This document shows positions 3,371-63,975 of a stretch of DNA of 64,000 nucleotides, one piece after another. Location: contig CAVTEU010000012.1 in the NCBI GenBank assembly GCA_963733905.1, positions 32,603-96,602 of the forward strand, in the 5' to 3' direction. Under the pieces are notes generated by a model. It saw only the letters and a list, made by a program, of their open reading frames with translations. It was not told the origin of the DNA and searched no databases. Source of the stretch: an uncultured Actinomycetes bacterium. GTDB lineage: Bacteria; Actinomycetota; Acidimicrobiia; Spongiisociales; DATADW01. A program made the position numbers and the translations under genes. The first letter of the stretch is position 1. Every line of letters begins with the position of its first letter.

Positions 3371-4360
3371 TCAGTCGACCACGACCGTGAGGACGGTGGT
3401 CTGCACGGTCACCCCGTTCCAGCGCCATCGCCCGACAAACTTGTAGGTGCCCGGCCGGATCGAGCGGAACTGGTAGACGAACACCTTCTTCGCCCTGCCG
3501 CCCGCCGTCCTCAACGTGGGTCCATCCGGGTCCAGCGTCTCGCCATCGACGGTCAGGGCGAAGCGGGTGGCGTCTGACATGAAGATCGAGCGCTCCCCGG
3601 ACAGGTAGGGGAGCTTGTGGACGATGCCTTCGCGGACCACGTATGTCCGCCCGGCGGGGAAGTGCTCGGTCCCGGTGCACCGGGTCCGATCTGCATTGCA
3701 GCCTCCGCGGAAGCGGCCGCTCAGGCTGATCGTGGGGTAGATCAAATCGAGGTCGAGCGCTCTGGCGAGGAAGCTCGCCATCTGGGCGCGGGTTACCGGG
3801 TCCTCGGGGCAGTAGAGCGTCTCGGTGCAACCCTGGGTGATCCCGTCGGCGGCGATGGCCGCGATGGCACGGGCATGCGTGCTCCCCGGGCTCACGTCAT
3901 TGAACACCCGGCCGGGACGGCCGGCCAGTCCCTCGGCCCGGGCCAGGAAGCTGGCCATCTGGGCGCGTGTCACCGGTTCGTCCGGGCAGAAGAGCCTGGG
4001 AGTACATCCCTCGGTGATCCCTTCTTCCTCGATGGCGGCGATGGCGCCGGCGTGCGTGCTCCCCGGGGTCACGTCGTCGAACACCCGTCCTCCCCGTGTC
4101 CCCAATCGGTAGGCGCGGGCCAGGAAACTCGCCATCTGCGCCCTGGTCACCGAGAGGGTCGGGCAGTAGAGGTCCTCGGCGCAGCCCTCGGTGATCCCGG
4201 CGGCGGCGATGGCGTTGATCGCCGCCTCGTGGTAGTCGCCGTTGTCGTCCTTGAATGCCCCGCCTGTGTTGGGGAGGTCGCTCTGACCGGCTGCGGGCGG
4301 CACGGCCAGCGCCGCCACCATCGCGGCCACCACCATCGCCGCCACGAACGCCACTCTCAT
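3371..4360 (-). CDS. Secreted protein with three S-layer-homology (SLH)-type repeats and a C-terminal beta-rich domain
   Basis: Intact 329-aa ORF with signal peptide MRVAFVAAMVVAAMVAALAVPPAAG. Three ~60-aa repeats each end in GIT.GC....CP...VTRAQMASFLARA. ATG 4360 overlaps the upstream stop (ATGA 4357-4360). Confidence 0.75.
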   Translation of the reverse strand: MRVAFVAAMVVAAMVAALAVPPAAGQSDLPNTGGAFKDDNGDYHEAAINAIAAAGITEGCAEDLYCPTLSVTRAQMASFLARAYRLGTRGGRVFDDVTPGSTHAGAIAAIEEEGITEGCTPRLFCPDEPVTRAQMASFLARAEGLAGRPGRVFNDVSPGSTHARAIAAIAADGITQGCTETLYCPEDPVTRAQMASFLARALDLDLIYPTISLSGRFRGGCNADRTRCTGTEHFPAGRTYVVREGIVHKLPYLSGERSIFMSDATRFALTVDGETLDPDGPTLRTAGGRAKKVFVYQFRSIRPGTYKFVGRWRWNGVTVQTTVLTVVVD

Positions 4361-4809
4361 GGTTCCACCTCGAGGGTGGCCAGGAGCTGGTTGACCTCCT
4401 CGACCAGCGCCCTCCGGGATGCGTGGCTGCCAAGCACGACATAGAGGCAGAAGGCGCGTCCTCCTTCCGAGAAGAAGCGTTGGACACCGCTCTGCCCGGG
4501 GATGAGCCGCTGCAGCGTCGAGGTCGAGAAGTCATCCGGGTCCAGATGGTCGGGGCGGTCTGCGGCGAAGAGCGTCTGGGTCGCCGACGCCGGTTCGAAT
4601 TCGAAGAGAGAGACGAAGATGTCGTCGGAGCGCATCATCTCCACGGCTCCGCCGCCGTAGTCGCCCCGCTCGACGGGGAGTGGGAAGGTTGCGGCGTGGA
4701 GGACGGCGCGGTTGGTGCCTTCGGCTTGGGGCACGGCGCTGGTCCGGTAGACCTCCCCCTCCCACCCCGTGGGGAGGTCGATTCGGATCCGCTCGGAGTC
4801 GATCTGCAT
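4357..4809 (-). CDS. Hypothetical protein (150 aa), no signal peptide seen
   Basis: Internal ATG (4809) of ORF 4357..5259 starts MQIDSERIRIDLPTGWEGEV.., 5 nt after the stop of the upstream gene (4815). Composition is coding-like and the stop overlaps the SLH gene start. I recognise no family. Confidence 0.5.
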   Translation of the reverse strand: MQIDSERIRIDLPTGWEGEVYRTSAVPQAEGTNRAVLHAATFPLPVERGDYGGGAVEMMRSDDIFVSLFEFEPASATQTLFAADRPDHLDPDDFSTSTLQRLIPGQSGVQRFFSEGGRAFCLYVVLGSHASRRALVEEVNQLLATLEVEP

Positions 4810-4814
4810 CGCAG

Positions 4815-5396
4815 TCACCAAATCACGATCAGTGCCGTGGCGGCGAGGGCGACGATGGTGGCGATGCGGGCATATGGGGCGACCGCGGTCAGGCGGCGGT
4901 GGAGCAGCCGCAGCCCGCCGGGGTCGCTCACCCGAGACGAAGCGAGAAGGGTCGATGCCCTTGCTGCCCCGAATATCGCCCCCACCACGATTCCGGTCCG
5001 CACCGACCCGGTGAGAGCAGCCAAGACAAAGGTGGCGTAGACCGCGGCGGTCGTGACGATCGTCACCACACCGAGCCCGAGTTGGAATCCGAAGCCGGCG
5101 CCGTACACCCAGCCGCGGTAGCGGTGCAGCCAGTCGTCGTCGACCTGCCGTCTCACCCCGGGAAGACGTCTCCCCGATGCATCGAGCAGCGCGGCCGAGA
5201 GACAGACGACGACGGCCAGCCACGCCACCACCACAGGAGTGGGCGAGGCGATCGCCCAAAGCGCTGCCCCGATGGCGCCGGCGATGCCCCCGGCGACAGC
5301 GCCCCCCGCCACCGACCCGGCGATGTAGGCGGTGGTGGTGACCCAGAATCGGTTGTGTCTTGCCCGCTCACCGAGCGGGTGGATGCTGGCCAGCAT
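4815..5396 (-). CDS. Integral membrane protein (193 aa, about 5-6 TM helices), unknown family
   Basis: Intact ORF with Gly/Ala-rich hydrophobic helices (AYIAGSVAGGAVAGGIAGAIGAALWAI; VVVAWLAVVVCLSAALL; GFGFQLGLGVVTIVTTAAVYATFVLAAL). It sits between the thioredoxin-like gene and the 150-aa gene in the same operon. Confidence 0.6.
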   Translation of the reverse strand: MLASIHPLGERARHNRFWVTTTAYIAGSVAGGAVAGGIAGAIGAALWAIASPTPVVVAWLAVVVCLSAALLDASGRRLPGVRRQVDDDWLHRYRGWVYGAGFGFQLGLGVVTIVTTAAVYATFVLAALTGSVRTGIVVGAIFGAARASTLLASSRVSDPGGLRLLHRRLTAVAPYARIATIVALAATALIVIW

Positions 5397-5485
5397 CGAT
5401 TCCCCTCAGGGTGACCACGCCGAGCGGAGCCCTGCCATCAGGGCCACCAGCGACGCTCCCGCAAAAAGCATCTCGCTCATGTCGT

Positions 5486-6208
5486 TCATGTGGCATCCGC
5501 CGGCGTGTCGTCGCTCCCGGTCGGATAGAGGCTGGAGTGACCAGGTCCGATCCCGCCGGCGAGCAGGTCTCGGGTCTCCCGGTCGGCAACCGGCCCACTC
5601 GCCATCGAGCCATCGGCCCGTGCCCGTTCGAGGAGCGAGACCATCTGCCGCCAGGTGGCGGCGGCGCCCTCACCGGCGACCCGCCCCGAAGGCCCGTCAA
5701 CCAGGATGAAGTAGGGCGCCACGGGTACACGGTAGTGGTCCCAGGCTTCGCTCGACATGGCGATCGTGACACCCGTCGGGGCGAGCGCCGCCACCGTCGA
5801 CTCGCTCTCCGCCTCGGGACCTTTGGTGACGACCACCAGTCGCACCCCGGCGGGCACTCGCCTGTCTTCGCCAAATGCCTTCCAGAACCCGGCGCAGGTG
5901 ACGCAGCCGCTGGTGAGGAAAGCGAGCAGCGTCTGGCGCTCGACACCGACGACGGCCACCTTCACCGCCCCGCCCCCGGGGCGATTGCCAGAGACGTCGA
6001 CTGCGGTGGTGCCCTCGGCACGGGGCGCCGGCACCCCCGGTCTGGTCCGGAGAGGCACCGCTGCCTCACCGACGTCCTCGCTATCGCCCAGTCGGTGCAG
6101 GCTGCGCAGGATGTCTGCGTGGCTCCGCAACAGGCCGAACACCAGGACGCCGAGCACCGCGATCACCACCGCCTCGAGCACAACGAGGGTGAGCAGAGCG
6201 GTGTCCAT
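5486..6208 (-). CDS. Membrane-anchored thioredoxin-fold protein, MauD/TlpA-like (CxxC = CVTC)
   Basis: ATG 6208 overlaps the stop of the upstream gene (ATGA). N-terminal TM helix MDTALLTLVVLEAVVIAVLGVLVFGLL, then a thioredoxin-like core with LLAFLTSGCVTCAGFW and PYFILVD. Confidence 0.7.
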   Translation of the reverse strand: MDTALLTLVVLEAVVIAVLGVLVFGLLRSHADILRSLHRLGDSEDVGEAAVPLRTRPGVPAPRAEGTTAVDVSGNRPGGGAVKVAVVGVERQTLLAFLTSGCVTCAGFWKAFGEDRRVPAGVRLVVVTKGPEAESESTVAALAPTGVTIAMSSEAWDHYRVPVAPYFILVDGPSGRVAGEGAAATWRQMVSLLERARADGSMASGPVADRETRDLLAGGIGPGHSSLYPTGSDDTPADAT

Positions 6209-10298: not shown

Positions 10299-11309
10299 AT
10301 GGACACACTGACCCAGCCGCAAACCAACCCTTCTCGTCCCCCCTCCCGGCAACCGGTGCGCCGCCGCCGCCGGCGGGGCCGGGGGTGGGTGCTCTTCTTC
10401 CTGTTCCTGGCGGTGCTCGCCGTCTTCGCCGCTGCCGGGTACGTCTATCTCGACCAACTCGCCATGGATCGGGTTCCTGTGGACACGCTGTCGGCCGCAG
10501 GGGGACCCACCAACTACCTGATCGTCGGTTCCGACACCCGTGAGGATCTCCCCGATGATCTCGAGGGGAACTTCGGCGATTTCAGCGGCGCCCGCTCCGA
10601 CGTGATCATCCTCGCCCACGTCACCGATGGGCGGCGGCAGCTGCTCAGCCTGCCGCGCGACCTCAAGGTCGACATCCCCGGTGAAGGCACCAACCGGATA
10701 AACGCCGCCTATGCCTTCGGCGGTCCTGAGCTGCTCACCGAGACGGTGGTCGACGCCACCGGTGTTCCTGTCCACCACTATCTCGAGGTCGACTTCGGTG
10801 GGTTCGCATCGATCATCGATGCCGTCGGTGGGATCGAGCTCGACATCCCGTACCCGGCCCGCGATCTCAAGTCCGGTCTCGAGATAGATGCGGGCAAGCA
10901 GACCGTGGATGGCGCAACCGCCCTCGCTTACGCCCGGTCGCGACAGTACGAGGAACTCCGCGATGGAGAGTGGGTCTCTCAGGGTGGCGGCGACCCGGGG
11001 AGGACGTCGCGCCAGCGCGAGGTGATGCTCCAGGTGCTGGCCAAGGTGGGCAGCCCAGCGGTTCTCGTTCGCACCCCCGGGCTGGTCACCGCCGTGTCCT
11101 CCAACCTCACCGCCGACGAGGGCCTCTCGCTTTGGGATCTGCTCCGGACCGGTGTGGGGATGCGGTTTGCCGGCGAGACCGACACCGTCGCCCTGCCCGT
11201 GGTCAGCGCACCGGAAAACGGCGTCGCCTACGTGGCACGTGACGAGCCCGAGGCGAGCGACATGATCGACGCCTTCCTCGACGGCCGCCCCCTGGAGACC
11301 GAGGAGTAG
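10299..11309 (+). CDS. LytR-CpsA-Psr (LCP) family cell-wall glycopolymer transferase
   Basis: Intact 336-aa ORF. Arg-rich cytoplasmic tail plus TM ([27 protein letters not shown]). LCP core NYLIVGSDTRE..RSDVIILAHV..LLSLPRDL..INAAYAFGGPELL..HHYLEVDFGGF..ALAYARSR. Confidence 0.9.
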   Translation: MDTLTQPQTNPSRPPSRQPVRRRRRRGRGWVLFFLFLAVLAVFAAAGYVYLDQLAMDRVPVDTLSAAGGPTNYLIVGSDTREDLPDDLEGNFGDFSGARSDVIILAHVTDGRRQLLSLPRDLKVDIPGEGTNRINAAYAFGGPELLTETVVDATGVPVHHYLEVDFGGFASIIDAVGGIELDIPYPARDLKSGLEIDAGKQTVDGATALAYARSRQYEELRDGEWVSQGGGDPGRTSRQREVMLQVLAKVGSPAVLVRTPGLVTAVSSNLTADEGLSLWDLLRTGVGMRFAGETDTVALPVVSAPENGVAYVARDEPEASDMIDAFLDGRPLETEE

Positions 11310-11411
11310 GGCACTGCTTGCCTCCCCCCGGTCGGCACGGCGGAGGAGTGCCAGGGCGAGCGTCGCAACACGGTGCTGACTCCCCCTGAGGGGCGACGGA
11401 GCGACGGTGTC

Positions 11412-11526
11412 CTCACCGTTGGGAGTTCGCCAGCCCCCCTACCCGCTGCTCCGCAGCGGGTCCCTTCCCCCTGCGGGGGGATTCTTGGCCGCCGTCCGCC
11501 GTCTTCCGTCTTCCGTCTGCCGTCCA
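11412..11526. repeat. Structured intergenic repeat, family 1, copy A (hairpin core plus 5 tandem heptamers CCGTC[CT][GT])
   Basis: Core 11418-11480 is 60/63 identical to the reverse complement of 53917-53979. It contains stems CCCGCTGC/GCAGCGGG and CCCCC/GGGGG. The heptamer array CCGTCCG CCGTCTT CCGTCTT CCGTCTG CCGTCCA is at 11492-11526. GCGACGG AGCGACGG lies in inverse orientation at 11393-11408. Confidence 0.85.
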
Positions 11527-11555
11527 CGGAGCGGCTCCTACCATCTTGCGGGCCC

Positions 11556-14500
11556 GTGCCTGCTCCGCTCGCTTCGCTGGTCGACCGGTGGCGGCCCCAC
11601 GATCTCCCCGGGGCAACCGGGCGGTTGGTGGTGCCGCCCAATGCCCGCGCCATCCTTCTCGGAGGTCTGGCGGCCAAGGCCACGGGAGCGGTGTTGGCCG
11701 TCGTTCCCAGCGAGCGCGATGCCGAGGAGCTTGCCGAGGACCTCGAGCTTTTCGTCGAGAAGGTGGCGCTGCTCCCGGCCTGGGAGACGCTGCCTTTCGA
11801 ACACGTCTCTCCGAACGTCGGGACCATGGCGCGCCGAGCCCATGCCAGGCACCGGCTCCGCCAGAACGAGCCGGGGGCGGTGGTCGTGGCATCGGCCCGT
11901 TCGGTGTCACAGCGGGTCAGCCCATCGTCGGTCGAGCCGATCACCGCGGCGCCGGGCGAGGAAGTCGGTTTCTACCGGCTCATCAGCGACTTGGCCGCGG
12001 CGGGTTATCACCGGACCGACCGGGTCGAGGCGCGCGGCGAGGTGGCGGTGCGGGGTGGGATCATCGACGTGTTCCCCGCACAGGGCGAGGAACCGGTCCG
12101 GATCGAGTTGTGGGGAGACGAGGTGGACTCGATCCGAGTCTTCTCCATCTCCAGTCAGCGGTCGATCGAGCCTGCGCCCCGTTTGGTTGCCTACCCGGCC
12201 CGCGAGTTCCGCCCCGAGGGGGAGGTAGCGAGCGAGGCGCGCCGGTTGCTTTCCACCGAGCAGTGGGCCGCCGCCACCTGGGAGCGGCTGGCCGAAGGGC
12301 TCGTCTTTCCCGGGATGGAGTCGTGGCTCCCCTGGATGACACCGCCGGTCACCGTCCTCGATGAGCTACCCGCCGGTGCACGACTAGTCGTCTTTGACCC
12401 GGTGAGAGCGGGTGACCGCAGCCGCGACCTGGTCAAGGAGGAGGCGGAACTGGCTGCTGCACTCGCCCCGACGTGGGGCCATGGCGCTCCCGAAGCGGGC
12501 GAGCATCCCGCCCTATATCTCGATCTCGGCCAGGCCCTCGAGGGCCGCGACCTGCTGACCGCGCCCGCCGCTGGCGGCCGGGCCTGCCGACGAACGCCTC
12601 GAGGTGCGGGGACTCGACGCCACTCCTGGCGACCCCGAGTCGGTGGCCCGTGGGCTCGACCGGTTGATGCGAGCCGGGACCACGGTGGTGGTGGCGATGG
12701 ACGGGGAAGCAGCCGCCGACCGTGTTGCCGGCGTCCTGGCCGACGAAGGCGTCGCCTTACCGCGCCGATCCTCGCTCGACGAGGTGGCGTCGGCGGTGCT
12801 CCCGGTCGGGATTCACCGCGGTTTCATCCTCCCCGGTCTCGGCGTCTCCGTTCTCGGCGAGCAGGAGATAGCCGGGAGGCGCCGCGCTCACCGCCGCGCT
12901 GCCCGCCGCGCACCGGCAACCGGGGCGGACTATCGCGACCTCACCCCGGGCGACTACGTGGTTCATCACCGGCACGGGATTGGCCGGTTCGAGGGGATGG
13001 TGACCCGGAGCATCGCCGGCGTGGAGCGTGACTACCTGGTGGTGGCGTATGCCGCCGGTGACCGGCTCTATGTCCCCACCGACCAACTGGCCGCGGTCCG
13101 CAAGTACACCGGCGGCGAAGAGCCTCGCATTTCCCGCATGGGGGGCAAGGACTGGGCCGAGACGCGGGCCCGGGTACGGAGGGCGGTGGCCGCGGTTGCG
13201 GAGCAGGTCGTGGCGCTCCACCGCGCCAGGGCGGCCGCCGTCGGGCACGCCTATCCGGTTGACGCACCGTGGCAACGCGAGATGGAATCCGCCTTCCCGT
13301 ACGAGGAGACGCCCGACCAGCTAACCGCCATTGTCGACGTCAAGGAGGACATGGAGCAGGACCGGCCCATGGACCGTCTGGTGTTTGGAGACGTCGGCTA
13401 CGGCAAGACCGAGGTGGCGATCCGTGCCGCCTTCAAGGCGATCCTCGATGGCAGGCAAGTAGCGGTACTGGTGCCCACCACCCTCTTGGCCCAGCAGCAC
13501 CACCAGACCTTCTCGGAGCGTTTCGCCCCTTATCCGGTCAGGGTGGAGGTGCTCTCGCGGTTTCTCACCCAGCGTCAGCAGCGCGTCGTCGTCGACGGCA
13601 TACGGCAAGGAGATGTCGACGTGGTGATCGGCACACACCGCTTGCTCAGCGACGACATCCATTGGAAGGACCTCGGCCTGCTCGTGGTCGACGAGGAGCA
13701 GCGCTTCGGGGTCAACGCCAAGGACGCCATCAAACAACTCCGGGTCGGAGTGGACGTCCTCACCCTTACCGCCACCCCCATCCCACGGACGCTGGAGATG
13801 GCGCTGACCGGGATACGCGACGTGAGCCACATCCGGACCCCGCCCGAGGACAGGCACCCCATCCTCACCTACGTCGGGCCGTACGACGAGCAGGCCGTGG
13901 CGGCGGCGATCCGGCGTGAGGTGCTGCGCGAGGGCCAGGTCTTCTACGTGCACAACAGGGTCCGGTCGATCGAACGTGCCGTGGCTCGGCTCCGTGAGCT
14001 GGTCCCCGACGCCCGCTACGCGGTGGCGCACGGCCAGATGTCAGAGGGCCAATTGGAGCAGGTCATGCTCGACTTCTGGAACCGTGAGGCCGACGTGCTG
14101 GTGGCCACAACCATCATCGAGTCCGGGCTCGATCTGCCCCAGGTGAACACGCTGATGGTGGAGCGCGCCGACCTGTTGGGCCTTGCCCAGCTATATCAGT
14201 TGCGGGGACGGGTCGGCCGGTCCAGCCAGAGGGCCTACGCCTACCTCTTCCACCCGCCTGATCAATCGATCACCGAGGAAGCGCACCGCCGGCTCGAGGC
14301 GATCGGTGAGGCCACCGACCTCGGATCGGGGTTCCAGTTGGCTCTGCGCGACCTGGAGATCCGCGGGGCCGGCTCTGTCCTCGGCGAGATCCAATCGGGG
14401 CAGATCGCCGCGGTCGGCTTCGACCTGTACGCCGAGATGGTGGCAGATGCGATACGCCAGATGGAGGGGAGGGAGGAGGCGCCACCAGAGCCGTCAGAGG

Positions 14501-14934
14501 TTCGGATCGAGCTCCCCGTGGTTGCCCACCTGCCGCCCGAGTACGTGGGTGACGACGAGGCGCGGCTCGAGGCCTACCGCCGTCTGGCCGAGGCCGACAC
14601 GGTGGCCGCGGTGGACGACGTCGCCGTCGAGTGGCAGGACAGATATGGGCCGCCCCCCGAGGCGGCGCTCCAGTTGCTCGACGTGGCGAAGCTCAGGGTC
14701 GAGGCGCTCCGCGTGGGGATCAGCGAGGTGGTCCAGTTGCGCCACGAGATCAGACTCGCCCCGGTAGACCTCACCACGTCGCAGGAGGTCCGGCTGCAAC
14801 GGCTGTCGCCCAGGGCGGTACTCCGGTCCACCGACAGTGCCATGTTCATACCGGCTCCGGTTCCGCTTGTCACCGGGTTGATCGCCTTTCTCGCCGCCAT
14901 GTGGCCCCCATCCCAACCCGCCGCGGGGGAGTGA
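11556..14934 (+). CDS. mfd: Transcription-repair coupling factor Mfd; one frameshift near nt 12580
   Basis: ORF 11373..13031 (N-terminal UvrB-like region: LLPAWETLPFEHVSPN) and ORF 12604..14934 in the +1 frame (CarD-like DYVVHHRHGIGRF; helicase motifs GDVGYGKTEV, DEEQRFG, TATPIPRT, QLRGRVGR). Start assigned to in-frame GTG 11556, downstream of repeat A (uncertain). Confidence 0.9.
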
Positions 14935-34591: not shown

Positions 34592-34680
34592 GGCTCGCCT
34601 CGCTGCGCTCGCTCGCGGTTCTGGGTGATGGGTTTTGGGTTTGAGTTCTCCCACGAGCGACGGACGGCGGTCGGCGAACC
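34592..34680. repeat. Structured intergenic repeat, family 2, copy F (GGCTCGC..CGCTCGC box plus 7-bp arrays)
   Basis: GGCTCGCCTCGCTGCGCTCGCTCGCG, then GTTCTGG GTGATGG GTTTTGG GTTTGAG (34618-34645), then GACGG-rich heptamers (ACGAGCG ACGGACG GCGGTCG GCGAACC). Lies in the divergent spacer between the aminotransferase and amidohydrolase genes. Confidence 0.75.
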
Positions 34681-40744: not shown

Positions 40745-41971
40745 ATGACCCGGCAACCCATTCGTTCCCTTTGGTCTCTATTAGCGCTGGTCGCCCTAGT
40801 GGTCGCCGTTGCGGCGGTGACGAAGGCGGTGGCGCCGGCACGACAGTTGCGGCGGTGGCGCCGGCACAGGTTGCCGGAGGAGCCGGTGAAGCTCCTGCGT
40901 GCGAGCCGGGTCAGACCGATGGTGATCTGACCTCTACACTGGACGGAGTACATCGACCCCGAGTTGCTCTCGCCTTCGAGGAGGAGTCCGGGGTAGCGGT
41001 CAGCGAGACCTTCTACGACTCGAACGAGACGATGTTGGCTCAGATCCAGACGGGCCAGGTTTACGACCTGATCGTTCCATCGGACTACATGGTTTCGATC
41101 ATGATCACCGACGGCTTGCTGCTGCCGCTGCAGAAAGACGCAATACCCAACATCGAGAACCTGGGAGAGGATTTCCGGTCCCCGCCATACGACCCGGACC
41201 TCACCTACTCCGTGGGCTACCAATGGGGAACCACCGGGCTCGGGGTGGATACCGAGGTGGTCGGGACCGATTTCCCCGCTGCTGGGCGCTGGTGTTCGAC
41301 CCTGCGGTGACCGAACCCTACGCCGGGCAGATCTCGTTGCTCAACGACGCCCGGGAGACCTTGGGGGCGGCCTCAAGTACCTCGGCTACTCGCTCAACAG
41401 CGAGAGCCAGGAGGAGGTGGACGCCGCCGCCGCACTGATGAGCGACAACATCGACCGGATCACCAAGTTCGACTCGGACCTCTACACCGACGATCTGGTC
41501 AACGGCGAGGTGGCGGTCTCGCACGGCTACAGCGGCAACTTCTTTACGGCCTTCGCCGCCACCGACAACCCCGACCGCTATGCCTATGTGATCCCCGAGG
41601 AGGGCGCCACCCTGTGGACGGACAACATGGCGATTCCGTCCGGGGCAGAGCATCCATGCACGGCGCACGCCTTCATCAACTTCCTACTCGACGCCGAACG
41701 GGGGGCCCAGTTGACCAACTGGAACTACTACGCCAGCCCCAACGAGGCCTCCGCCGAATTCATCCTTCCCGAGATCCTCGAAGACCCCACCATCTACCCG
41801 CCGCCGGACATCCGTGACGGGCTCGAGATCATCCAGAACACCGGGGACTTCGAGATCGCCTACACCGACGCCTTTGCAGCGGCGAGGAGTGAGAGGAGGC
41901 TCGCTTCGCTCGCCGTATTGGGTTATGGGTTCTGGGTTATGGGTTCAGACCCTCCAACACGTCGAGGATGA
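40745..41971 (+). CDS. potD: Spermidine/putrescine-binding periplasmic/lipoprotein component; four or more frameshifts; stop uncertain
   Basis: Fragments 40745..40930 (signal MTRQPIRSLWSLLALVALVVAVAAV), 40771..41310 (FEEESGVAVSETFYDSNETMLAQIQTG..DLIVPSDYMV..YQWGTTGLGV), 41223..41438, and 41417..41971 (VAVSHGYSGNFF..WTDNMAIPSGAEHPCTAHAFINFLLD). The ORF reads through repeat G. Confidence 0.75.
41898..41946. repeat. Structured intergenic repeat, family 2, copy G
   Basis: GGCTCGCTTCGCTCGCC, then GTATTGG GTTATGG GTTCTGG GTTATGG (41915-41942). Lies at the convergent junction of potD and the GrpB gene. Confidence 0.75.
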
Positions 41972-48558: not shown

Positions 48559-48566
48559 GAAAGCGT

Positions 48567-48726
48567 GCGGCCCTGCGGGCCGCGCTGACTTGTGCTGGTC
48601 GGGCCGTACACGCCGACCCGACCAGGCCGAGGGGGCTGGGAGGACCCGCCCCCTCGGGCACCCCCATCCAGGTACGTCTGCCGCTGCCGTCCGCCGTCTC
48701 TGGTTCCGTCCGCCGTCCGCCGTCTA
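48567..48726. repeat. Structured intergenic repeat, family 1-like, copy C (three hairpins plus CCGTC heptamer array)
   Basis: Stems GCGGCCC-tgc-GGGCCGC (48567-48583), CTGGTCGGG/CCCGACCAG (48594-48625), and GCCGAGGGGG/CCCCCTCGGGC (48626-48659). Then ACGTCTG CCGCTG CCGTCCG CCGTCTC .. CCGTCCG CCGTCCG CCGTCTA (48674-48726), overlapping the aldehyde dehydrogenase stop. Confidence 0.7.
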
Positions 48727-51407: not shown

Positions 51408-52718
51408 ATGGGTTTCCAGGGCCCGGAGACGGCGAAGTGGTATCGGCGGGGGACTGAATCGTTGGTCAAGGGTACGTCGAGCATGTTCCGCTATTGGAGC
51501 GACGACGACACCATGGTCATCGCCCGCGGCGAGGGCGGCGCCGTGTTCGACATGGACGGCAAGCGCTATGTCGACTACCAGCTTGGCTTCGGACCGGTGA
51601 TCCTCGGTCACGGGCGGGCGGAGGTGGCCGCCGCCGTCGCCGAGGCCGCTGCCGACGGCACCACGTTCGCCATGACCCAGCGGCGTGAGATCGAGGCCGC
51701 CGAGGCCTTCAAGAAAGCCGTGCCGTGGGTTGAGCATCTCCGGTTCACCAACACCGGAACCGAGGCAACGATGCATGCCATCAGGCTCGCCCGCGGGTTC
51801 ACCGACCGCGAGGTGGTGGTCAAGTTCGAGGGTCAGTACCACGGGGTCCACGACACGGTGATGTTCTCCACCGCGGGAGCACCTCCCGGCCACCTCGGTG
51901 CCCGCACTGCCCCGGTCCCATGGCAGAACTCATCGGGCATCCCCGAGGCGACCCGGACCTCGGTTCGCACCATGCCCTTCAACGACCTCGAGCTACTGGA
52001 GCGGCTCTTCGCCGACCAGGGCCGCAGGATCGCCGCCGTCATCGTCGAGCCGATACTGGGCAATGCCTTCGGGATCATGCCCCAACCCGGGTTCCTCGAA
52101 GGGTTGCGACGGCTTTGCGACGAGTACGGGTCGGTGCTGATTTTCGATGAGGTGAAGACCGGGTTCCGGGTCTCTCTGGGCGGGGCCCAGGAGTTGTTCG
52201 GTGTCACCCCCGACCTGGGCACTTTCGCCAAGGCAATGGGGAACGGGTTCCCGGTGGCAGCGGTCGCCGGGCGCAGCCCGGTGATCGATGCACTAGGTGC
52301 AGGCGGGATCGGCCAGGCGGGTACATACAGCGGCAATGGTGTTGCCGTGGCTGCAGCCAAGGCCACGATCGGCATCCTCTCCACCGGTGAGCCTTACGAC
52401 AGGATCGATCAGGTGGGGACGGCCTTGATGGAGGGGATCCGGAAGGTGCTCGCCGATCGCGGCGTGCCCGGGCACGTCACCGGTCACCCCGCGATGTTCT
52501 CCATCTTCCTGGCCGAGGAAGAGCCCACCGAGTTCCGACACGCGGTGAACCACGACGAGCCGAGGTACGAGGAGATCTGTGCCGGGCTCATCCATCGTGG
52601 GGTGATGCCCTGCCCGGACGCCCTCGAGCCATGGTTCACCAGTTCGGCCCACACCGACGAGGACGTGGCGCTCACCCTTCAAGCCTTCGACGAGGCGCTG
52701 GCCGACACCGTTTCGTGA
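51408..52718 (+). CDS. Class III aminotransferase, glutamate-1-semialdehyde-2,1-aminomutase-like
   Basis: AGGAGG 8 nt before ATG 51408, then 436 intact codons. DYQLGFGPVILGH..FTNTGTEATMHAIRLAR..EPILGN..IFDEVKTGFR (PLP Lys)..GTYSGN. Confidence 0.85.
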   Translation: MGFQGPETAKWYRRGTESLVKGTSSMFRYWSDDDTMVIARGEGGAVFDMDGKRYVDYQLGFGPVILGHGRAEVAAAVAEAAADGTTFAMTQRREIEAAEAFKKAVPWVEHLRFTNTGTEATMHAIRLARGFTDREVVVKFEGQYHGVHDTVMFSTAGAPPGHLGARTAPVPWQNSSGIPEATRTSVRTMPFNDLELLERLFADQGRRIAAVIVEPILGNAFGIMPQPGFLEGLRRLCDEYGSVLIFDEVKTGFRVSLGGAQELFGVTPDLGTFAKAMGNGFPVAAVAGRSPVIDALGAGGIGQAGTYSGNGVAVAAAKATIGILSTGEPYDRIDQVGTALMEGIRKVLADRGVPGHVTGHPAMFSIFLAEEEPTEFRHAVNHDEPRYEEICAGLIHRGVMPCPDALEPWFTSSAHTDEDVALTLQAFDEALADTVS

Positions 52719-53881
52719 GTCGGATCGCGCTGCTCGGTGCCGGGATCATCGGGCGGGTCATCGCCCGTGACCTGGCCACATGGGATCGCCCCGACGAGGT
52801 GGTGGTGGGTGACGTCGACGTGGAGAGGGCCAAGACGGCAGCCGGAGAACATGGCTTCGAGGGCGCCGAGGTGGACGTGCTCGACCCGGACTCCCTCGAT
52901 GCATTCCTTGCCGGCGCCTCGGTGGTGGTGAACGCCGCCCAGTACCACGTCAACCTCGCCGTAATGGAGGGGGCGCTTCGGGCGGGTTGTCACTACCTCG
53001 ATCTCGGCGGGCTGTTCCACACCACGCGACGCCAGCTCGAACTGGGGGAGCGGTTCGAGGAAGCCCGGCTCAGCGCCGTCCTCGGGATCGGTTCGTGCCC
53101 CGGGATCGCCAACGTCCATGCCGGCGACCTGGGGGCCAGGCTGGAACACGTTCGCTCGGTCCGGATCTTCAACGGCGCCACCGTGGACCCCTCCGATCGG
53201 ATCACCTGGCCCTACTCGCTTTGGACGATCCTCGATGAGGTCACTCAACGCCCTGTCGTCTTCCGCGACGGCGAGTTCGTCGAGGTGGAACCGCTTGTCC
53301 GAGGAGGAGCCCTTCCCGTTCCTCGAGCCGATCGGCTACGCCACCACCCACCTCTCGCTCCACTCCGAGGTGGCGACCATCCCGGTGAGCCTGGCGGCGA
53401 AGGGGATCGAGCGGTGTGAGTTCAAGATCCGGTTCTTCGGGCTGTCCGAGCCGGCCCTCCGCAAGCTCGCCTTCCTCGCCTCGATCGGTCTCGCCTCCAC
53501 CGACCCCAGGACCGTCGGGGAAGTCGAGGGAGTCGTCCCCCGCCGCCTCTTGGTCGACCTGCTCGAGGAGACCACACCACCTCCTCCGGACCACGCCGGG
53601 TTCAAGGACATCGCCACCGTGGCCGAGGGCACGGTCGACGGCGTACCCACCCGGCTCAGGCTGGACGCAACCGCATGGCCATCATCCGAACTGGGCGTCG
53701 GCGGGGGCACGGTCGCTGTCGCCGCCCCCCGGCCGTGGTCGCCCGCTGGCTGGCCGGCGACGCCCTCCGTCCCGGTGTCCACCCCCCGGAGACCGTGATC
53801 GAACCGGCTCCCTTCTACGAGGAATTGGCGCGGCGGGGGATCAGGACCACTCTCAGCGAGGAAACCGTTCTGGCGGGATAG
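52715..53881 (+). CDS. Saccharopine-dehydrogenase-like NAD(P)-binding oxidoreductase; two to three frameshifts
   Basis: GTG 52715 overlaps the aminotransferase stop (GTGA). IALLGAGIIGRVIARDL Rossmann motif..NAAQYHVNLAVMEGALRAGCHYLDLGG (ORF 52631..53419). Continues in ORFs 53118..53798 and 53675..53881. Confidence 0.7.
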
Positions 53882-53991
53882 TCGGAAGACGGAAGTCGGA
53901 AGGCGATCTGCTCCGTCCCCCCGCAGGGGGAAGGGCCCCGCTGCGGAGCAGCGGGTAGGGGGGCTGCCGAATTCCCAACTGTGCTCGCCAC
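53881..53991. repeat. Structured intergenic repeat, family 1, copy B1 (inverted relative to copy A)
   Basis: GTCGGAA GACGGAA GTCGGAA (53881-53901). The 63-nt core at 53917-53979 is 60/63 identical to the reverse complement of 11418-11480. Confidence 0.85.
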
Positions 53992-54006
53992 ACCGGCTAT
54001 CGCGCT

Positions 54007-54135
54007 CTTGGGAGTGAACCAGCCCCCCTCCCCCGACGCCTGCGGCCTCGGGTACTCCCCCCGCCGGGGGAGAGAAACTCAGGGACGGCTCGATTTGGAC
54101 GCCTCGCTACCCTCGTCTCGTCGCCTTGCCGTCTA
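54007..54135. repeat. Structured intergenic repeat, family 1, diverged copy B2 (same orientation as copy A, tail-to-tail with B1)
   Basis: CTTGGGAGTGAACCAGCCCCCCT.. parallels GTTGGGAGTTCGCCAGCCCCCCT.. of copy A. Hairpins are kept with different sequence (CCCGA..GCC-tgc-GGC..TCGGG; CCCCC..GGGGG). A degenerate CCGTC-type tail lies at about 54105-54135. Confidence 0.65.
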
Positions 54136-54148
54136 GGGGGATAGCGCA

Positions 54149-54994
54149 ATGGGAACCGCGATGACACTCGGGTTCCGGACCAGGACACGCCTCATGACCC
54201 GCGTATTGATCGGGTCGTGCATTCTCTCCACCGCGGCGTTCGTGCTCACCTACGTCCTCGCCGAGGACACGGAGCAGTACTTCGCTTGGACGGTCCAACC
54301 TCCGCTCAGCGCCGCCTTCTTCGGTGCCGGTTACGGGGCGGGCGCACTCCTCGCCGGGTTGTGCTTGCGTGAGCGGTCCTGGGCTCGGATCCGCCCCGGC
54401 GTCCTCGCCATCATCATCTTCGCCACCCTCACTCTGGTGGTCACCTTGCTCCACCGTGACCGGTTCCACTTCGGGGTGGGCGGTTTCGCAGAAGGATCGG
54501 CATGGCTCTGGCTCGCCATCTACGTCGTGTTCCCCATCGCCGGGGTGGTCGCCCTGGTGACCGAGTGGCGGGCGCTGGGCAGCGACCCTCCTTATGCGGG
54601 TCCTCTCCCTTCTGCGCTCCGGGGGATCCTCGCCATCCAGGCCGTGGTGCTTGGTCTGCTCGGTTTGGGACTTCTGCTCTTCCCCGAGCCAGTGGCCACC
54701 TTCTGGCCTTGGACCCTCACGCCCCTCACCGCTCGTGCGATCGGCGCCTGGCTGCTCCCGATCGGGTTGGCCGGGGTGTGGGTGGTGTTCGAGAACGACC
54801 TGGGGCGGTCGCGGATCCTTTCCACCGTCTACGTCTTCTACGCCATCCTCGTTATCGGTGCGCTGGCGCGGTTCCGGGAGGAGGTCGACTGGAGTCACTC
54901 GTCGGCTTGGGCGCTGGGGGCGATGGTTGCGCTGATCCTGGTTACCGGGATTGCCGGGAGGGTCGCTGCGGCTCGGCTCCCCGCCGGTAGTTGA
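54149..54994 (+). CDS. Integral membrane protein (281 aa, about 7-8 TM), unknown family
   Basis: Intact ORF, hydrophobic throughout (LIGSCILSTAAFVLTYVL; GVLAIIIFATLTLVVTLL; WLWLAIYVVFPIAGVVALV..). Confidence 0.6.
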   Translation: MGTAMTLGFRTRTRLMTRVLIGSCILSTAAFVLTYVLAEDTEQYFAWTVQPPLSAAFFGAGYGAGALLAGLCLRERSWARIRPGVLAIIIFATLTLVVTLLHRDRFHFGVGGFAEGSAWLWLAIYVVFPIAGVVALVTEWRALGSDPPYAGPLPSALRGILAIQAVVLGLLGLGLLLFPEPVATFWPWTLTPLTARAIGAWLLPIGLAGVWVVFENDLGRSRILSTVYVFYAILVIGALARFREEVDWSHSSAWALGAMVALILVTGIAGRVAAARLPAGS

Positions 54995-55037
54995 AATCCC
55001 GCGTGCTAGGGACCAAGGCTCTTCTAACCTGCCGCCC

Positions 55038-56252
55038 ATGGACCTGACCCTCCGCCCCGTCACCGAGGACGAGCTTCCCGAATTCGCCCGCTGGGTGAGC
55101 CGCGCTTTCCACGGCGACGTCAAGGACGAGGATCTCGAGGACTGGAAGATCTGGTTCGAGATCGAGCGCAGCCTGGCCGCCTTCGATGGCGACCGGATCG
55201 TCGGGACCGCGGGTGCCATCAGTTATGAGCTCACCGTGCCCGGAGGCAGTCTTCCCGCCGCCGGCGTGACCGTGGTCTCGGTGCGCTCCACCCACCGGCG
55301 ACGCGGCGTGCTGTCGGCCATGATGCGCCACCAGCTCGACGACGTCCGTGACCGGGGTGAGGCGATCGCCATCCTCTGGGCTTCGGAGAGCATCATCTAC
55401 GGCCGGTTCGGCTACGGGATGGCTGCTCCCGATGTGACCCTCGAGATCGAGCGTCGCCACGGCCGGCTGGCGATGCCTTTCGAGTCCCCAGGTGAGATCC
55501 AACTGCTCGAGCGCGAAGAGGCCGAAAAGATCCTCCCCTCGCTGTACGAGCAGATCCGACCGACCTACCCAGGGATGCTGGGAGAGGACCCGAGCCGCTG
55601 GCAGCTCATGTTCAACGACCGGGAGAGCCACCGCGACGGCATGAGCTCCAACCGGTACGTGTCCTACGAGGAAAACGGCGAGTCATTGGGCTTTCTCCGC
55701 TACCGGGCAAAGGGGGAATGGGACGAGGGTTTTGCCCGTGGAAAGGTGACCACCCCGCAACTCATGGCGCTGACGCCCAACGCATACAAGGCGCTTTGGT
55801 CTCATCTGCTCAACCTCGACTTGGTGGAGTCGATCGCCGCCTACCACCGACCCGCCACGGAGCCGCTCGGCATGATGCTCGCCGACCCTCGCCGGCTCCG
55901 GGCCAGGCTCAGCGATGGCCTCTGGCTGCGGATACTCGACGTGCCGACCGCCCTGGGAACCCGGCGCTATCGCCAAGCGGGGAGCCTGGTCCTCGAGGTG
56001 GCCGACCCGCTGGGATACGCCGCCGGCCGGTTCCGGTTGGAGGGTGACGTCGATGGGGCCGAGGTGACGAGCACCGATGCCGAGCCCGATCTCACCCTTG
56101 ACGCCGCGGCGCTCGGTGCCGCCTACCTCGGGGGCACCAAGGTCATGGCTCTGGCCGAGGCTGGTCTGATCCAGGGCGAGCCGGAGGCAATCCGACGGGC
56201 CGACATCATGTTCGGTTGGGACCGACCCACCTGGATCCCCTGGATCTTCTGA
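55038..56252 (+). CDS. Eis-family GNAT acetyltransferase (GNAT-GNAT-SCP2 architecture)
   Basis: ATG 55038 within ORF 54951..56252. VSVRSTHRRRGVLSAMM, ILWASESIIYGRFGYGMA, and a C-terminal sterol-carrier-like part (GRFRLEG..LTLDAAALGAAYLGG). Confidence 0.8.
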   Translation: MDLTLRPVTEDELPEFARWVSRAFHGDVKDEDLEDWKIWFEIERSLAAFDGDRIVGTAGAISYELTVPGGSLPAAGVTVVSVRSTHRRRGVLSAMMRHQLDDVRDRGEAIAILWASESIIYGRFGYGMAAPDVTLEIERRHGRLAMPFESPGEIQLLEREEAEKILPSLYEQIRPTYPGMLGEDPSRWQLMFNDRESHRDGMSSNRYVSYEENGESLGFLRYRAKGEWDEGFARGKVTTPQLMALTPNAYKALWSHLLNLDLVESIAAYHRPATEPLGMMLADPRRLRARLSDGLWLRILDVPTALGTRRYRQAGSLVLEVADPLGYAAGRFRLEGDVDGAEVTSTDAEPDLTLDAAALGAAYLGGTKVMALAEAGLIQGEPEAIRRADIMFGWDRPTWIPWIF

Positions 56253-56279
56253 CCGTCCAGCCCGGTTAGCGTCGGGTTC

Positions 56280-57913: not shown

Positions 57914-58084
57914 GGCTCGCTGCGCTCGCAGCTCGCTGCGCCGTTCTGGGTTTTGGGTTCTGGGCCTCGGAGCGGAAGACGGAACGCCGAACCCGTCGCC
58001 ACCTGCAGCGGGCTCCCACTGCCGCCGTACGCCGTCCGCCGTCCGCCGTACCGCCGTCCGCCGTCGGCGGCGGAGCCGCCGGCC
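57914..58084. repeat. Composite structured repeat, copy D (family 2 box, phased heptamer run, short core, inverted CCGTC array)
   Basis: GGCTCGCTGCGCTCGCAGCTCGCTGCGCC. Then seven in-phase heptamers GTTCTGG GTTTTGG GTTCTGG GCCTCGG AGCGGAA GACGGAA CGCCGAA (57943-57991). Core with GGCTCCCACT. Then CCGTACG CCGTCCG CCGTCCG CCGTACC .. CCGTCCG CCGTCGG (58025-58067). Hairpin GGCGGC-gga-GCCGCC. Confidence 0.8.
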
Positions 58085-58846
58085 CTACAACAGCACGATC
58101 AGGGCGAAGGTGCCGAAGACGAAGCAGTAGATGGCGAAGGGGAGCAGGCCGACGGTCTGCAGGGCACGCAACAGCAGGGCGATGGCGAAGTAGCCCGAAA
58201 TCGCCGCCACCACCATCCCGACCCAGACCTGCGAGGAGATTCCGCCGTCGTTGACCAGGTCGACCACCCCGAACAACCCGGCGGCGGCGATGGTGGGAAC
58301 CCCGAGCAGGAACGAGAAGCGAGCCGCCTCCACCGGAGTGAGCCCTCTCCCTTCCCCCACGGTGATCGTGGTGCCCGACCGGGAGATCCCGGGGAGCAGC
58401 GCAACTAGCTGAACCAGACCCACCAGGAAGGCGTCGAGCGGTCGCGCCTCCTCCAGTCGCATCCGCCCCGAGGTGAGACGGCTCCCCACCACCAGGATGA
58501 ACCCGTTGACGATGAGCAGCGCCGCAGCAACCCAGGCGATCGCCTGCAGTTGCTCGATCGGACCCTCCAGTGCCAGTGCGGCCACCGCAGGAAGGGTGCC
58601 GACCACCACCAGGAGGAGCATCCGACGGGCCACCGGGTCCGAACGGAAGCGGAGCATGCGGAGCAGGTCCACCCGGAAATAGGCGACCACCGCCACCAGG
58701 GTCCCCAGATGGAGCACCGCGGTGGTGGCGAGATCGGGCGGCTCAAGACCGAGCAGCGCCGGGATCAAGACGAGGTGGCCGTCCGAGGAGATGGGGAGGA
58801 ACTCGGTGATCCCTTGGACGAGCCCCCACACGATGGCTTGCAGCAC
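58085..58846 (-). CDS. uppP: Undecaprenyl-diphosphate phosphatase
   Basis: Intact 253-aa ORF. GLVQGITEFLPISSDGHL..LPGISRSGTTI..FSFLLGVP are BacA/UppP signatures. Confidence 0.9.
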   Translation of the reverse strand: MLQAIVWGLVQGITEFLPISSDGHLVLIPALLGLEPPDLATTAVLHLGTLVAVVAYFRVDLLRMLRFRSDPVARRMLLLVVVGTLPAVAALALEGPIEQLQAIAWVAAALLIVNGFILVVGSRLTSGRMRLEEARPLDAFLVGLVQLVALLPGISRSGTTITVGEGRGLTPVEAARFSFLLGVPTIAAAGLFGVVDLVNDGGISSQVWVGMVVAAISGYFAIALLLRALQTVGLLPFAIYCFVFGTFALIVLL

Positions 58847-62622: not shown

Positions 62623-63857
62623 TGCGCCCCCTGCGCGATGCGCAGGCAACCGTGCTGTCGGCGATCCGGCGGCTCCCCGTCACCGAGGTCGAGTTGGGCG
62701 ATGCACTCGGACTGGTGCTGGCCGAAGAGGTGCGGGCCCCACACGACGTGCCCCCCTTCGCCAACTCGGCGATGGACGGCTACGCCGTCATCGCCGCCGA
62801 CGTTGCCGCGGCTCCGGTGACGTTGCAGGTGGTCGAGGATGTGGCTGCCGGACGCGTCCCCACCTTGGCGGTGACACCGGGGAGCGCCATCAAGATCATG
62901 ACCGGCGCCACCATCCCCGAGGGTGCCGACGCCGTGGTCCCCGTTGAGGTGACCCGTCAGGACGGCGACCGGGTCGAGATCCTGGAGGGGGTGCCCAAGG
63001 GCGCCTCGGTGCGCGCCGCCGGGGGAGACGTCGCCGCCGGCTCCACCGTGCTCCGCACCGGGGAGAGGATGGGGCCGGCCCACCTTGCGGTCCTCGCCTC
63101 CATCGGTGTGGGCCGGGTCAAGACCTACGCCCGCCCCAAGGTGGCGATCATGTCAACCGGCGACGAGTTGCGTCCCCCCGACACCGCCGAGCTCGGTCCC
63201 GGTCTGATCCGCGACACCAACCGACCGCTCCTTGGCGCACTGCTCGCTGAGGTGGGCGTCGAGGTGATCGATCTCGGGATCATCCCCGACGACGAGGCGA
63301 CGCTCCGCTCGGCGCTCCGCCGCGCCTCTTCCGAAGCGGACGCAGTGGTCACCTCGGGCGGGGTTTCGATGGGGGAGTACGACCTGGTCAAGCAGTTGGT
63401 AGGGGAGTTGGGGGGCATCGAGGTCTGGCAGACGGCGATGCAGCCGGCCAAGCCTTTCGCCTTCGGGCGGCTTGGCGGCACCCCCTTCTTCGGGCTCCCC
63501 GGCAACCCGGTATCGGTGATGGTCGCCTTCGAGCAGTTCACCCGCCCGGCGCTCCTCCAGATGATGGGTTCGGAGAAGCTGTTCCGCCCCCGTCTCGAAG
63601 GTGTCCTGGTGGGTGGTGCCGAGACCGATCCCGCCAAGACGGTCTTCCTCCGGGTCCGTACCTGGTGGGAGCACGGAGCATTGTTCGCCGAGTCCTCCGG
63701 CGTCCAGTCATCCAACGTCCTCTCCGCCCTGGCCGCCGCCGACGCCTTCGCCGTGGTCCCCGAGGGCGTCTCCACCGTCCCCGACGGTGGCCCGGTGACG
63801 CTCGAGATGTTCCGTCAACCCGAGTCCCGCACCGCCGCCGAGGCCCTGGCGCAATGA
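62622..63857 (+). CDS. moeA: Molybdopterin molybdenumtransferase
   Basis: ATG 62622 (or GTG 62619) overlaps the galU stop. PPFANSAMDGYAV..IMTGATIPEGADAVV..STGDEL..IRDTNRPLL..TSGGVSMGEYD..PGNPVS. This is the tail of ORF 62577..63857. Confidence 0.9.
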   Translation: MRPLRDAQATVLSAIRRLPVTEVELGDALGLVLAEEVRAPHDVPPFANSAMDGYAVIAADVAAAPVTLQVVEDVAAGRVPTLAVTPGSAIKIMTGATIPEGADAVVPVEVTRQDGDRVEILEGVPKGASVRAAGGDVAAGSTVLRTGERMGPAHLAVLASIGVGRVKTYARPKVAIMSTGDELRPPDTAELGPGLIRDTNRPLLGALLAEVGVEVIDLGIIPDDEATLRSALRRASSEADAVVTSGGVSMGEYDLVKQLVGELGGIEVWQTAMQPAKPFAFGRLGGTPFFGLPGNPVSVMVAFEQFTRPALLQMMGSEKLFRPRLEGVLVGGAETDPAKTVFLRVRTWWEHGALFAESSGVQSSNVLSALAAADAFAVVPEGVSTVPDGGPVTLEMFRQPESRTAAEALAQ

Positions 63858-63975
63858 GACGGCAGACGGCAGACGGCAGACGGCAGCCAGAGGGTCGCGC
63901 TGCGAGCAGCGCCCTTCTTCAATTCAGCAGTCCCCCGCGTAGGCGGGGCCGCCGAACTCCAATGGTGCTCGCTCT
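63858..63975. repeat. Structured intergenic repeat, family 1-like, copy E (four perfect GACGGCA heptamers plus hairpin core); may extend beyond the window
   Basis: GACGGCA x4 (63858-63885) starts immediately after the moeA stop. Stems GCGCTG-cgag-CAGCGC and CCCCGC-gtag-GCGGGG. The tail CGAACTCCAATGGTGCTCGC matches CGAATTCCCAACTGTGCTCGC of B1 and CGAACTCCCAACGGTG of copy A. Confidence 0.75.

Follow-up and report, generated by a model that had tools for sequence, protein, structure and literature searches.

Modular extragenic palindromes of the REP/BIME type in a few uncultured soil Acidimicrobiia

Two near-identical inverted copies and their genomic setting

The DNA analysed here (the window) is a 64-kb stretch of contig CAVTEU010000012.1 from an uncultured member of the Acidimicrobiia, and the element under study is a 63-nt hairpin-rich core that occurs in it twice, in opposite orientations. 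Copy 1 is located in the spacer between a LytR_cpsA_psr (LCP) gene (end at 11309) and mfd, the UvrB-interaction domain of which is encoded from near 11950 and the likely start of which is a GTG near 11556. Copy 2 is located 3' of the TAG codon (53879-53881) of a saccharopine-dehydrogenase-like gene, and the next open reading frame (ORF), which is unannotated, starts at ~54149. Both positions are intergenic, as stated in a preliminary description of this DNA. The reverse complement of 11418-11480 differed from 53917-53979 at 3 of 63 positions, the same count as had been reported, and 100 dinucleotide-preserving shuffles yielded 0 such matches. The inverted match can be extended to 68 nt at 94% identity (11414-11481 and 53916-53983), making it by far the top inverted repeat of the window (runner-up, 50 nt at 70%). 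The present study revealed that these copies belong to a new, lineage-restricted family of the known repetitive extragenic palindromic (REP)/bacterial interspersed mosaic element (BIME) type in a few uncultured soil Acidimicrobiia, and not to a new kind of system.

Each core folds into the two adjacent stem-loops described earlier, and both copies are A modules of this family (Table 1). Copy 1 consists, in order, of a C6-GCA-G5 hairpin, a CCCGCTGC-GGA-GCAGCGGG hairpin, GTAGGGGGGCTG, and the tail CGAACTCCCAAC, with AGAATC in place of the usual CGTC tag. The adjoining degenerate partner half aligned weakly with the B half of the composite at 53.9 kb (72% over 191 nt, A part included), and no second copy of it was found in the DNA examined (the window and the collected loci, which are cited by L numbers). 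Copy 2 is joined tail to tail to a B module through a linker of a type recurring at many loci, and the whole of 53879-54085 folds as a single long hairpin (-116 kcal/mol, z -3.7). This B module is the "diverged third copy" of the preliminary description (54007-54070), and its covariance-model match established it as genuine. It comprises a TCTC tag, a C5-GGC-G6 hairpin, AGTA, a damaged 9-bp stem (CCCGAGGCC-GCA-GGCGTCGGG), GGAGGGGGGCTG, and the tail GTTCACTCCCAAG, whereas this stem is intact in the L044 orthologue and in the B consensus, where it is the perfect 9-bp CCCGACGCC-GGA-GGCGTCGGG. The changes between 53917-53979 and 54007-54070 had been described as compensatory; the difference is mostly that between the A and B subfamilies, and the window B module is slightly damaged. 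By covariance model, three family modules are present in the window at E<1e-7.

Two looser relatives had also been proposed, and only one of them stood, as a weak relative (63886-63975). It is composed of a GCGCTGC-GA-GCAGCGC hairpin, a CCCCGC-GTAG-GCGGGG hairpin, and a CGAACTCCAAT tail with 1 mismatch. The other (48567-48660) was rejected as a family member, with no covariance-model match, no CGAAYTCC motif, and only an adjoining array of 7-nt repeats (heptads) in common. The DNA at 48560-48675, 3' of an aldehyde dehydrogenase gene, is a chain of four GC-rich hairpins (CCGAGGGGGC/GCCCCCTCGG; GGTCGGG../..CCCGACC; GCGGCCC-GCA-GGGCCGC; CCCGGCGGC-CTG-GCCGCCGGG), that is, a locus-specific terminator-like block next to a heptad array and neither an A nor a B module. 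The cluster at 48567-48660 showed 85% identity to a stretch of L023 from a close relative (MFD00962.bin.2.219), which is probably the orthologous site.

Table 1. Modules, linker and repeat arrays, by window position unless a locus number is given (R1, covariance model; TRF, Tandem Repeats Finder)
Feature	Position	Strand	Match or remark
Degenerate partner half adjoining copy 1	11338..11412	-	CGTC-tagged CCCC-TCA-GGGG mini-hairpin
A module, copy 1	11413..11487	-	R1 93.1 bits, E 3.5e-22; folded
Heptad array (GACGGMR) x5.3, head side of copy 1	11489..11525	-	TRF period 7, 5.3 copies
Second repeat family	34592..34645		
Second repeat family	41898..41946		
Heptad array directly 3' of aldehyde dehydrogenase stop	48675..48725	-	TRF
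Heptad array TCGGAAG ACGGAAG TCGGAAG	53882..53902	+	starts 1 nt past TAG stop; missing from L044 orthologous site
A module, copy 2, with TCCGTC head tag	53910..53984	+	R1 97.8 bits, E 1.9e-23; folded
Tail-to-tail A/B linker, 17 nt	53985..54001	.	top of long composite hairpin
B module	54002..54078	-	R1 58.8 bits, E 6.2e-13
Second repeat family	57914..57964		
Heptad array, GACGGCG type, 6 copies, 3' of bacA-like gene stop	58022..58065	-	faces second array, 57971-57991
Perfect (GACGGCA) x4.3 array	63857..63886	+	TRF 100% matches; starts on last base of moeA TGA (63855-63857)
Degenerate, rearranged element	63887..63975	+	R1 14.1 bits, E 0.63 at 63917-63968
Second repeat family	L004 1662..1712		
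Second repeat family	L004 6446..6495		

Distribution and modular architecture of the family

For the distribution of the family, a public collection with one genome per species (185,579 species) was scanned with the pattern CCCCCNNNGGGGGN{10,40}GGGGGGCTGNNNNANTCCCAA. Under this strict pattern, 48 loci yielded 53 matches, all of them within five uncultured Acidimicrobiia metagenome-assembled genomes (MAGs; 24, 18, 6, 4, and 1 matches per MAG), namely four Microflora Danica long-read bins and one short-read SMAG (DATADW, k141 contig). The covariance model R1, built from the pattern-matched sequences, detected 95 modules at E<1e-7 in 446 kb from the five MAGs. The further copies that the preliminary description had called for are therefore there, in dozens, and confined to these MAGs. 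The sole Rfam match of the window is a tRNA remote from the elements, and the best Rfam hits over the elements (E 0.1-0.3) were far below the gathering score; no named family fits.

A and B modules are built on one plan: tag, hairpin of a C-run and a G-run, second hairpin, G6CTG block, and tail of the form ..A.TCCCAA. The A module has a CGTC tag (..TCCGTC), a C6/G6 hairpin (CCCCCC-GNA-GGGGGG), the spacer AAGGG, an 8-bp hairpin (CCCGCTGC-GGA-GCAGCGGG), and then GTAGGGGGGCTG..CGAACTCCCAA, with TAGGGGGGCTG as the G block and sCGAACTCCCAAC as the tail, whereas the corresponding parts of the B module are ..TCTC or CCTC, CCCCCC-GGC-GGGGGG, AGTA, CCCGACGCC-GGA-GGCGTCGGG, GGAGGGGGGCTG, and GTTCACTCCCAA. 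The tag stands flush with hairpin 1, being CGTC in 50 of the 58 A modules (TGTC in 2) and CCTC, TCTC, or GCTC in 26 of the 28 B modules. Hairpin 1 has 5-6 C-G pairs and a GCA, GGA, GTA, or GGC loop, and is followed by the second hairpin and a tail of ~25 nt. Modules occur singly, as tail-to-tail A-b dimers (~170 nt, forming one long hairpin), in alternating arrays, and beside (GACGGAA)n. Clusters of the architectures Ab, aB, aBa, AbAb, and AbAbAb were found, and in L043 seven modules alternate at a period of 172 nt. The identity among A modules was 0.82 within genomes and 0.83 between genomes.

Several other identities were considered and rejected. An assembly artefact is contradicted by the presence of the family in five MAGs, one of them a short-read assembly. 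The arrays are not clustered regularly interspaced short palindromic repeats (CRISPR), as the linkers are also repeated and there are no unique spacers, nor are the modules integron attC sites, their neighbours being housekeeping genes. A tRNA-like or T-loop reading of GGTTCACTCC was discarded, the sole Rfam tRNA of the window lying far from the elements.

The apparent frameshifts of mfd and of the saccharopine-dehydrogenase-like gene suggest long-read homopolymer errors, and the lengths of the C-runs and G-runs given here may be off by one. In the window, mfd is covered by two overlapping frames (11373-13031 and 12604-14934), and its counterpart in L049 is split elsewhere (3690-5741 and 5750-); the saccharopine-dehydrogenase-like gene (52631-53881) changes frame mid-gene. 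These split frames are probably homopolymer errors of the long-read MAG consensus.

Heptad arrays and other repeats around the modules

Five GACGGMR-type tandem arrays are present in the 64-kb window, and four of them start 1-36 nt past a same-strand stop codon (Table 1). Reverse-complemented, the heptad GACGGAA reads TTCCGTC, the head tag of A modules. Of 47 intergenic heptad runs, ~38 look like true GACGG-type arrays and 16 abut the head of a same-strand module. The array at 11489-11525 precedes the likely mfd start by ~30 nt, and the orthologous array in L049 is built of different units. The gene preceding the array at 63857-63886 was identified as moeA by its MoeA Pfam match, and L012 has no such array at the orthologous site. 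The palindrome is lengthened in L013 and L049 by an inverted heptad array on the far side of the element. A minus-strand ORF (11538-11906) was considered as a gene ending at the heptads and rejected, with no Pfam match and an overlap with the mfd N-terminus.

A second repeat family, in which a GGCTCGC..CGCTCGC box precedes T-rich heptads (TGGGTTY/GTTCTGG)n, stands directly 3' of stop codons. In relatives, many A modules have the same box, CCGCTCGCTCCGCTCGC, after their tail (L008, L015, L017, L021, L025, L036, and L041), and given this recurrence after A tails, the second family appears to represent a third module type within one mosaic system. The convergent spacer at 57943-58067 is nearly all heptads, with GTTNTGG grading into GACGGAA, then a short core and six inverted CCGTNCG units.

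Metagenomes were scanned with a pattern lacking the tail, and the matches listed were mostly other C6/G6-hairpin repeat families, including a 65-nt family (Ga0272446/Ga0209162-type samples), low-GC families, and a B-like AGTAC family with a GAA loop. All of the 100 metagenome loci that were searched with R1 scored <=45 bits; the motif style is widespread, and these loci are not members of the A/B family. The B-like module (TCTC-C6-NNN-G6-AGTAC, a 5-bp stem with a GAA loop, GGGAGGGGGGCTG) stands beside unrelated genes on many soil metagenome contigs (L053, L066, L069, L079, L087, L088, L093, L107, L120, L128, L142, L143, L147, L149, L154, and L161-L166) and is frequently paired with a CCCCCTCCACCCCTTCGGGGTCCCCCTCCCCC-NNN-GGGGGAGGAG block. 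The separate 65-nt C6/G6 family predominates on Ga0272446/Ga0209162 contigs. C6/G6-stem hairpin repeats seem to be widespread in high-GC environmental bacteria.

Turnover at orthologous spacers

Comparison with close relatives revealed that spacer content turns over much faster than the flanking genes, while the sites stay occupied (four orthologous spacers). L044 and L012, both from MFD00962.bin.2.219, have ~95% DNA identity to window 52146-63859, with three element-bearing spacers that are unalignable. An A-b dimer is found 3' of the saccharopine-dehydrogenase-like gene in both genomes, accompanied by heptads in the window versus a different degenerate hairpin block in the relative. Downstream of moeA, the window has four perfect heptads and a degenerate element, whereas L012 has a clean, full A module and no heptads. 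In the 57.9-kb spacer, two facing heptad arrays of the window contrast with a partial A-like module in L044. The fourth comparison is provided by L049 (MFD00962.bin.2.16), whose LCP protein is 93% identical to that of the window; its LCP-mfd spacer contains a full A-b dimer followed by (TTCCGTC)n, whereas that of the window contains a degenerate stretch, an inverted A in place of b, and heptads of other units.

An IS110-family element inserted in A modules

In addition to exchange of modules and heptads, A modules were found to be divided by an insertion sequence (IS). L038:4656-5941 (MFD00962.bin.2.219) is a 1.29-kb insert with an IS110-family transposase gene (a 363-aa ORF; Pfam DEDD_Tnp_IS110 2e-22, Transposase_20 5e-16), and it splits an A module between GGCAGCCCCCC and TACCCGCTGC. 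A copy 98% identical to it (L172:1278-2572, same MAG) divides another A module at the same point, and relatives with 62-63% protein identity from other assemblies (L173, L174, and L175) share its IS ends and are inserted in module-like targets. Within the 190-nt left end of the IS, a hexamer tracks the right flank of the target (GGGTAG with CTACCC, AGGTAG with CTACCT), a covariation of the kind that would be expected of a bridge-RNA guide. The ends of the element (AGGGATAATCG.. and ..CTATAGGAGCAT) are unrelated to the module dimer, which is itself a palindrome, and none of the IS in the DNA examined had ends resembling it. This IS110 element uses the modules as a landing site and is not their source. 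That they are targeted in this way speaks for the modules being stable DNA landmarks that can be recognised. REPs elsewhere are targeted by IS110-family elements, including IS621 in E. coli, ISPpu9/ISPpu10, and ISPa11, likewise with one fixed insertion point in the repeat.

Placement, structure, and the likely role of the modules

The 63-nt core is, in our assessment, likely the A module of a modular family of REP/BIME/REPIN-like extragenic palindromes (REPIN, REP doublet forming hairpin), whose copies probably form hairpin barriers at the 3' ends of transcripts. A copy transcribed as the tail of the upstream mRNA would, through its very stable hairpins, act as such a barrier in either direction, by protecting the transcript from 3'-5' exonucleases, by U-tract-independent or factor-assisted termination, or by both, which would account for copies being tolerated, and possibly maintained, downstream of genes but kept out of spacers that hold only promoters. 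Recombination or gene conversion between copies may give rise to new copies and to exchanges of modules, with an enzyme recognising hairpin and tag as a possible additional route, and the heptad arrays may grow and shrink by slippage.

Placement is one line of evidence for this reading, alongside the size and range of the family, its architecture, the constraint on A modules, the turnover at orthologous spacers, and the targeting by an IS110-family element. Among spacers typed by our own codon-bias gene caller at loci holding modules, 16 of 47 convergent ones were occupied (34%), compared with 21 of 155 tandem (14%) and 2 of 56 divergent ones (3.6%), a difference between convergent and divergent spacers that was pronounced (Fisher's test, odds ratio 13.9, P = 5e-5). 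A total of 39 module clusters fell in called spacers, and two were flagged inside ORFs by the same crude caller; copies were thus nearly confined to spacers in which one or both neighbouring genes terminate.

A further line is the conservation of hairpin 2, for which the covariation check confirmed pairing kept through two-sided changes. In the model-made alignment of A and B modules, 95.7% of cells were paired versus 41-81% with slid partners, and 5 of the 8 pairs of hairpin 2 change on both sides. In the MAFFT alignment of A modules only, the paired fraction was 97.2%, and double changes numbered 8 (five U-A to C-G, two G-C to A-U, and one C-G to A-U) versus 1.2 in shuffles. The B-like metagenome modules showed four different 5-bp stems around the GAA loop.

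A number of observations weigh against the preferred reading. The placement counts depend on a crude gene caller and on loci selected for holding a module. Module orientation relative to neighbouring genes is mixed, tandem spacers included, and copy 1 is antisense to both the LCP gene and mfd. Regarding structure, most covarying cells trace back to a single A/B divergence that many copies share by descent, hairpin 1 is invariant and shows no covariation in either alignment, and single modules fold only marginally better than shuffles (z -0.4 to -2.6). No canonical intrinsic terminator (hairpin plus U-tract) was detected in 53700-54300 or 11250-11650 (0 sites). A search of sequencing runs for the locus recovered 18% of sampled words in the best DNA run and no RNA run with the locus; since no RNA run matched, the barrier role is inferred from placement and stability. 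Furthermore, no mobilising enzyme was found in the 1.3 Mb examined.

Among the alternatives, the modules could be purely selfish DNA of the REPIN or miniature inverted-repeat transposable element (MITE) type that is copied in trans, for example by a HUH/Y1 enzyme akin to the REP-associated tyrosine transposase (RAYT) cutting at CGTC, with the 3'-end bias marking harmless insertion sites. We regard this as unlikely. In its favour are the tags flush with hairpin 1 in most A and B modules, the changes of CGTC to TGTC or CCTC described for CGTC-tagged REPs (PMC3733652), the REPIN-like long hairpins of the A-b dimers, the unequal numbers of strict matches among related genomes, and the quick content turnover at fixed sites. 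On the other hand, tblastn with an approximate E. coli RAYT seed, a weak test, returned nothing below E 1 and no RAYT-like ORF in the 1.3 Mb examined, and the sole transposase beside modules is the IS110 one that uses them as a target. Moreover, the four orthologous spacers are occupied in both genomes, with none filled in one and empty in the other, and the equal conservation of the consensus within and between species fits constraint better than decay after insertion.

A related proposal, which we consider still less credible and clearly doubtful, is that modules and heptads are both substrates of a single-strand DNA enzyme (HUH/Y1-like or other) recognising the C6/G6 hairpin and the CGTC tag, the (GACGGAA)n arrays being products of cutting and joining or landing sites and not the result of simple slippage. 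If so, the observed exchange of heptads for modules, and of modules for heptads, at given spacers of close relatives would be explained, and a first handle on the propagation of CGTC-tagged REPs would be gained.

It is very unlikely that the modules act at the DNA level as protein-binding or structural sites (for a nucleoid-associated protein or gyrase as in BIMEs, or as cruciform, G-quadruplex, or i-motif), affecting supercoiling or domains and not RNA. The numbers of G-U and A-C mismatches are nearly symmetric (13 vs. 12), and therefore neither RNA strand is indicated as the selected one; in line with DNA-level sites are also the independence of orientation from flanking genes and the single-stranded blocks (GGGGGGCTG and A.TCCCAA), which are invariant beyond what a hairpin needs, and the four G-runs per A module together with the GG every 7 nt in the heptads would permit quadruplexes. 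Such sites have no known binding protein, however, and the bias against divergent spacers is more simply attributed to transcription-linked effects. Lastly, small RNA genes or cis-regulatory leaders acting on the neighbouring gene are extremely improbable, for despite the conserved and covarying hairpin 2 and the position of copy 1, ~30 nt ahead of the likely mfd start, the neighbours are unrelated (LCP, mfd, saccharopine-dehydrogenase-like, moeA, leuS, a ROK gene, purB, and others), modules occur in both orientations and in arrays, 53700-54300 and 11250-11650 contain no promoter-like sites, Rfam gives no match, and close relatives (95% DNA identity, or 93% LCP protein identity) differ in what a given spacer contains.

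Implications

The family is missing from Rfam, and no paper on REP-type repeats in this lineage turned up in the full-text literature (none linking Acidimicrobiia with REPs, or REPIN/RAYT with Actinobacteria), which is of consequence for annotation. Repeat elements of this kind inflate N-termini in annotation: the public mfd gene call in L049 starts at a TTG (3690) inside the (TTCCGTC)n array, and a 552-codon ORF of the window runs through the A module and its heptads. In addition, the C and G runs of the modules are a sequence type prone to long-read consensus errors. If the 3'-end reading holds, such hairpin blocks without U-tracts may be a main means of ending or protecting transcripts. IS110-family elements are now known to be RNA-guided, and the modules, as natural targets of this family, are of interest in that respect. 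The heptad arrays change quickly and could be used to tell strains apart, like mycobacterial interspersed repetitive unit-variable number tandem repeat (MIRU-VNTR) loci.

Comparison with known repeat systems

The suggestion that the core represents a REP/MITE-like structured family without a named counterpart was borne out by its dozens of copies, the intergenic 3'-end bias, the covariation of hairpin 2, and the lack of an Rfam match. Because both the tag and the unit size differ, the modules are not GTAG REPs or REPINs: A modules have CGTC at the foot of the hairpin and B modules TCTC, CCTC, or GCTC, the unit measures 63-75 nt and contains two hairpins, and GTAG occurs in A modules only internally, at the start of the G-run (GGGTAGGGGGG). 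Like the REPINs propagated with RAYTs in Pseudomonas, the inverted dimers form long imperfect hairpins that are dispersed and vary in copy number among related genomes; unlike them, the dimers here are A/B heterodimers joined by their tails.

CGTC-tagged REPs come closer in their tag. In these, CGTC stands flush with the foot of the hairpin, with described changes to TGTC or CCTC, the 8-9 bp stem opens with two A-T pairs, and a 4-5 nt loop and a short CCA tail complete the unit; they have been reported from five phyla, with Actinobacteria not mentioned, and no dedicated transposase is known (Di Nocera, De Gregorio, and Rocco 2013; PMC3733652). The modules resemble them in having a CGTC- or CCTC-like tag by the stem, in lying mostly downstream of genes, and in frequently forming dimers (PMC3733652). 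They differ in the stem of 5-6 C-G pairs, the 3-nt loop, the second hairpin, and the long conserved tail, which place them outside that definition, as well as in the amplification of the tag complement into heptad arrays.

The organisation as a whole can be set beside the BIMEs of E. coli and Salmonella, which likewise combine two palindromic unit types (Y and Z REPs) in inverted alternation, with conserved linkers and in dimers or arrays. BIMEs are likewise extragenic, mostly 3' of genes or between co-transcribed genes; their occupied sites persist among relatives while composition differs, and they too receive IS110-family insertions. In contrast to the REP, a single palindrome of 20-40 bp, the unit described here is 63-75 nt long, contains two (perhaps three) hairpins with G/C homopolymer stems, and is flanked by tandem heptad arrays, and its host belongs to a high-GC actinobacterial class, to which BIME-style organisation (two units, inverted dimers, and arrays) is hereby extended. 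In summary, with many dispersed intergenic palindromic copies, a 3'-end bias, and two alternating units, the family fits the general REP/BIME kind.

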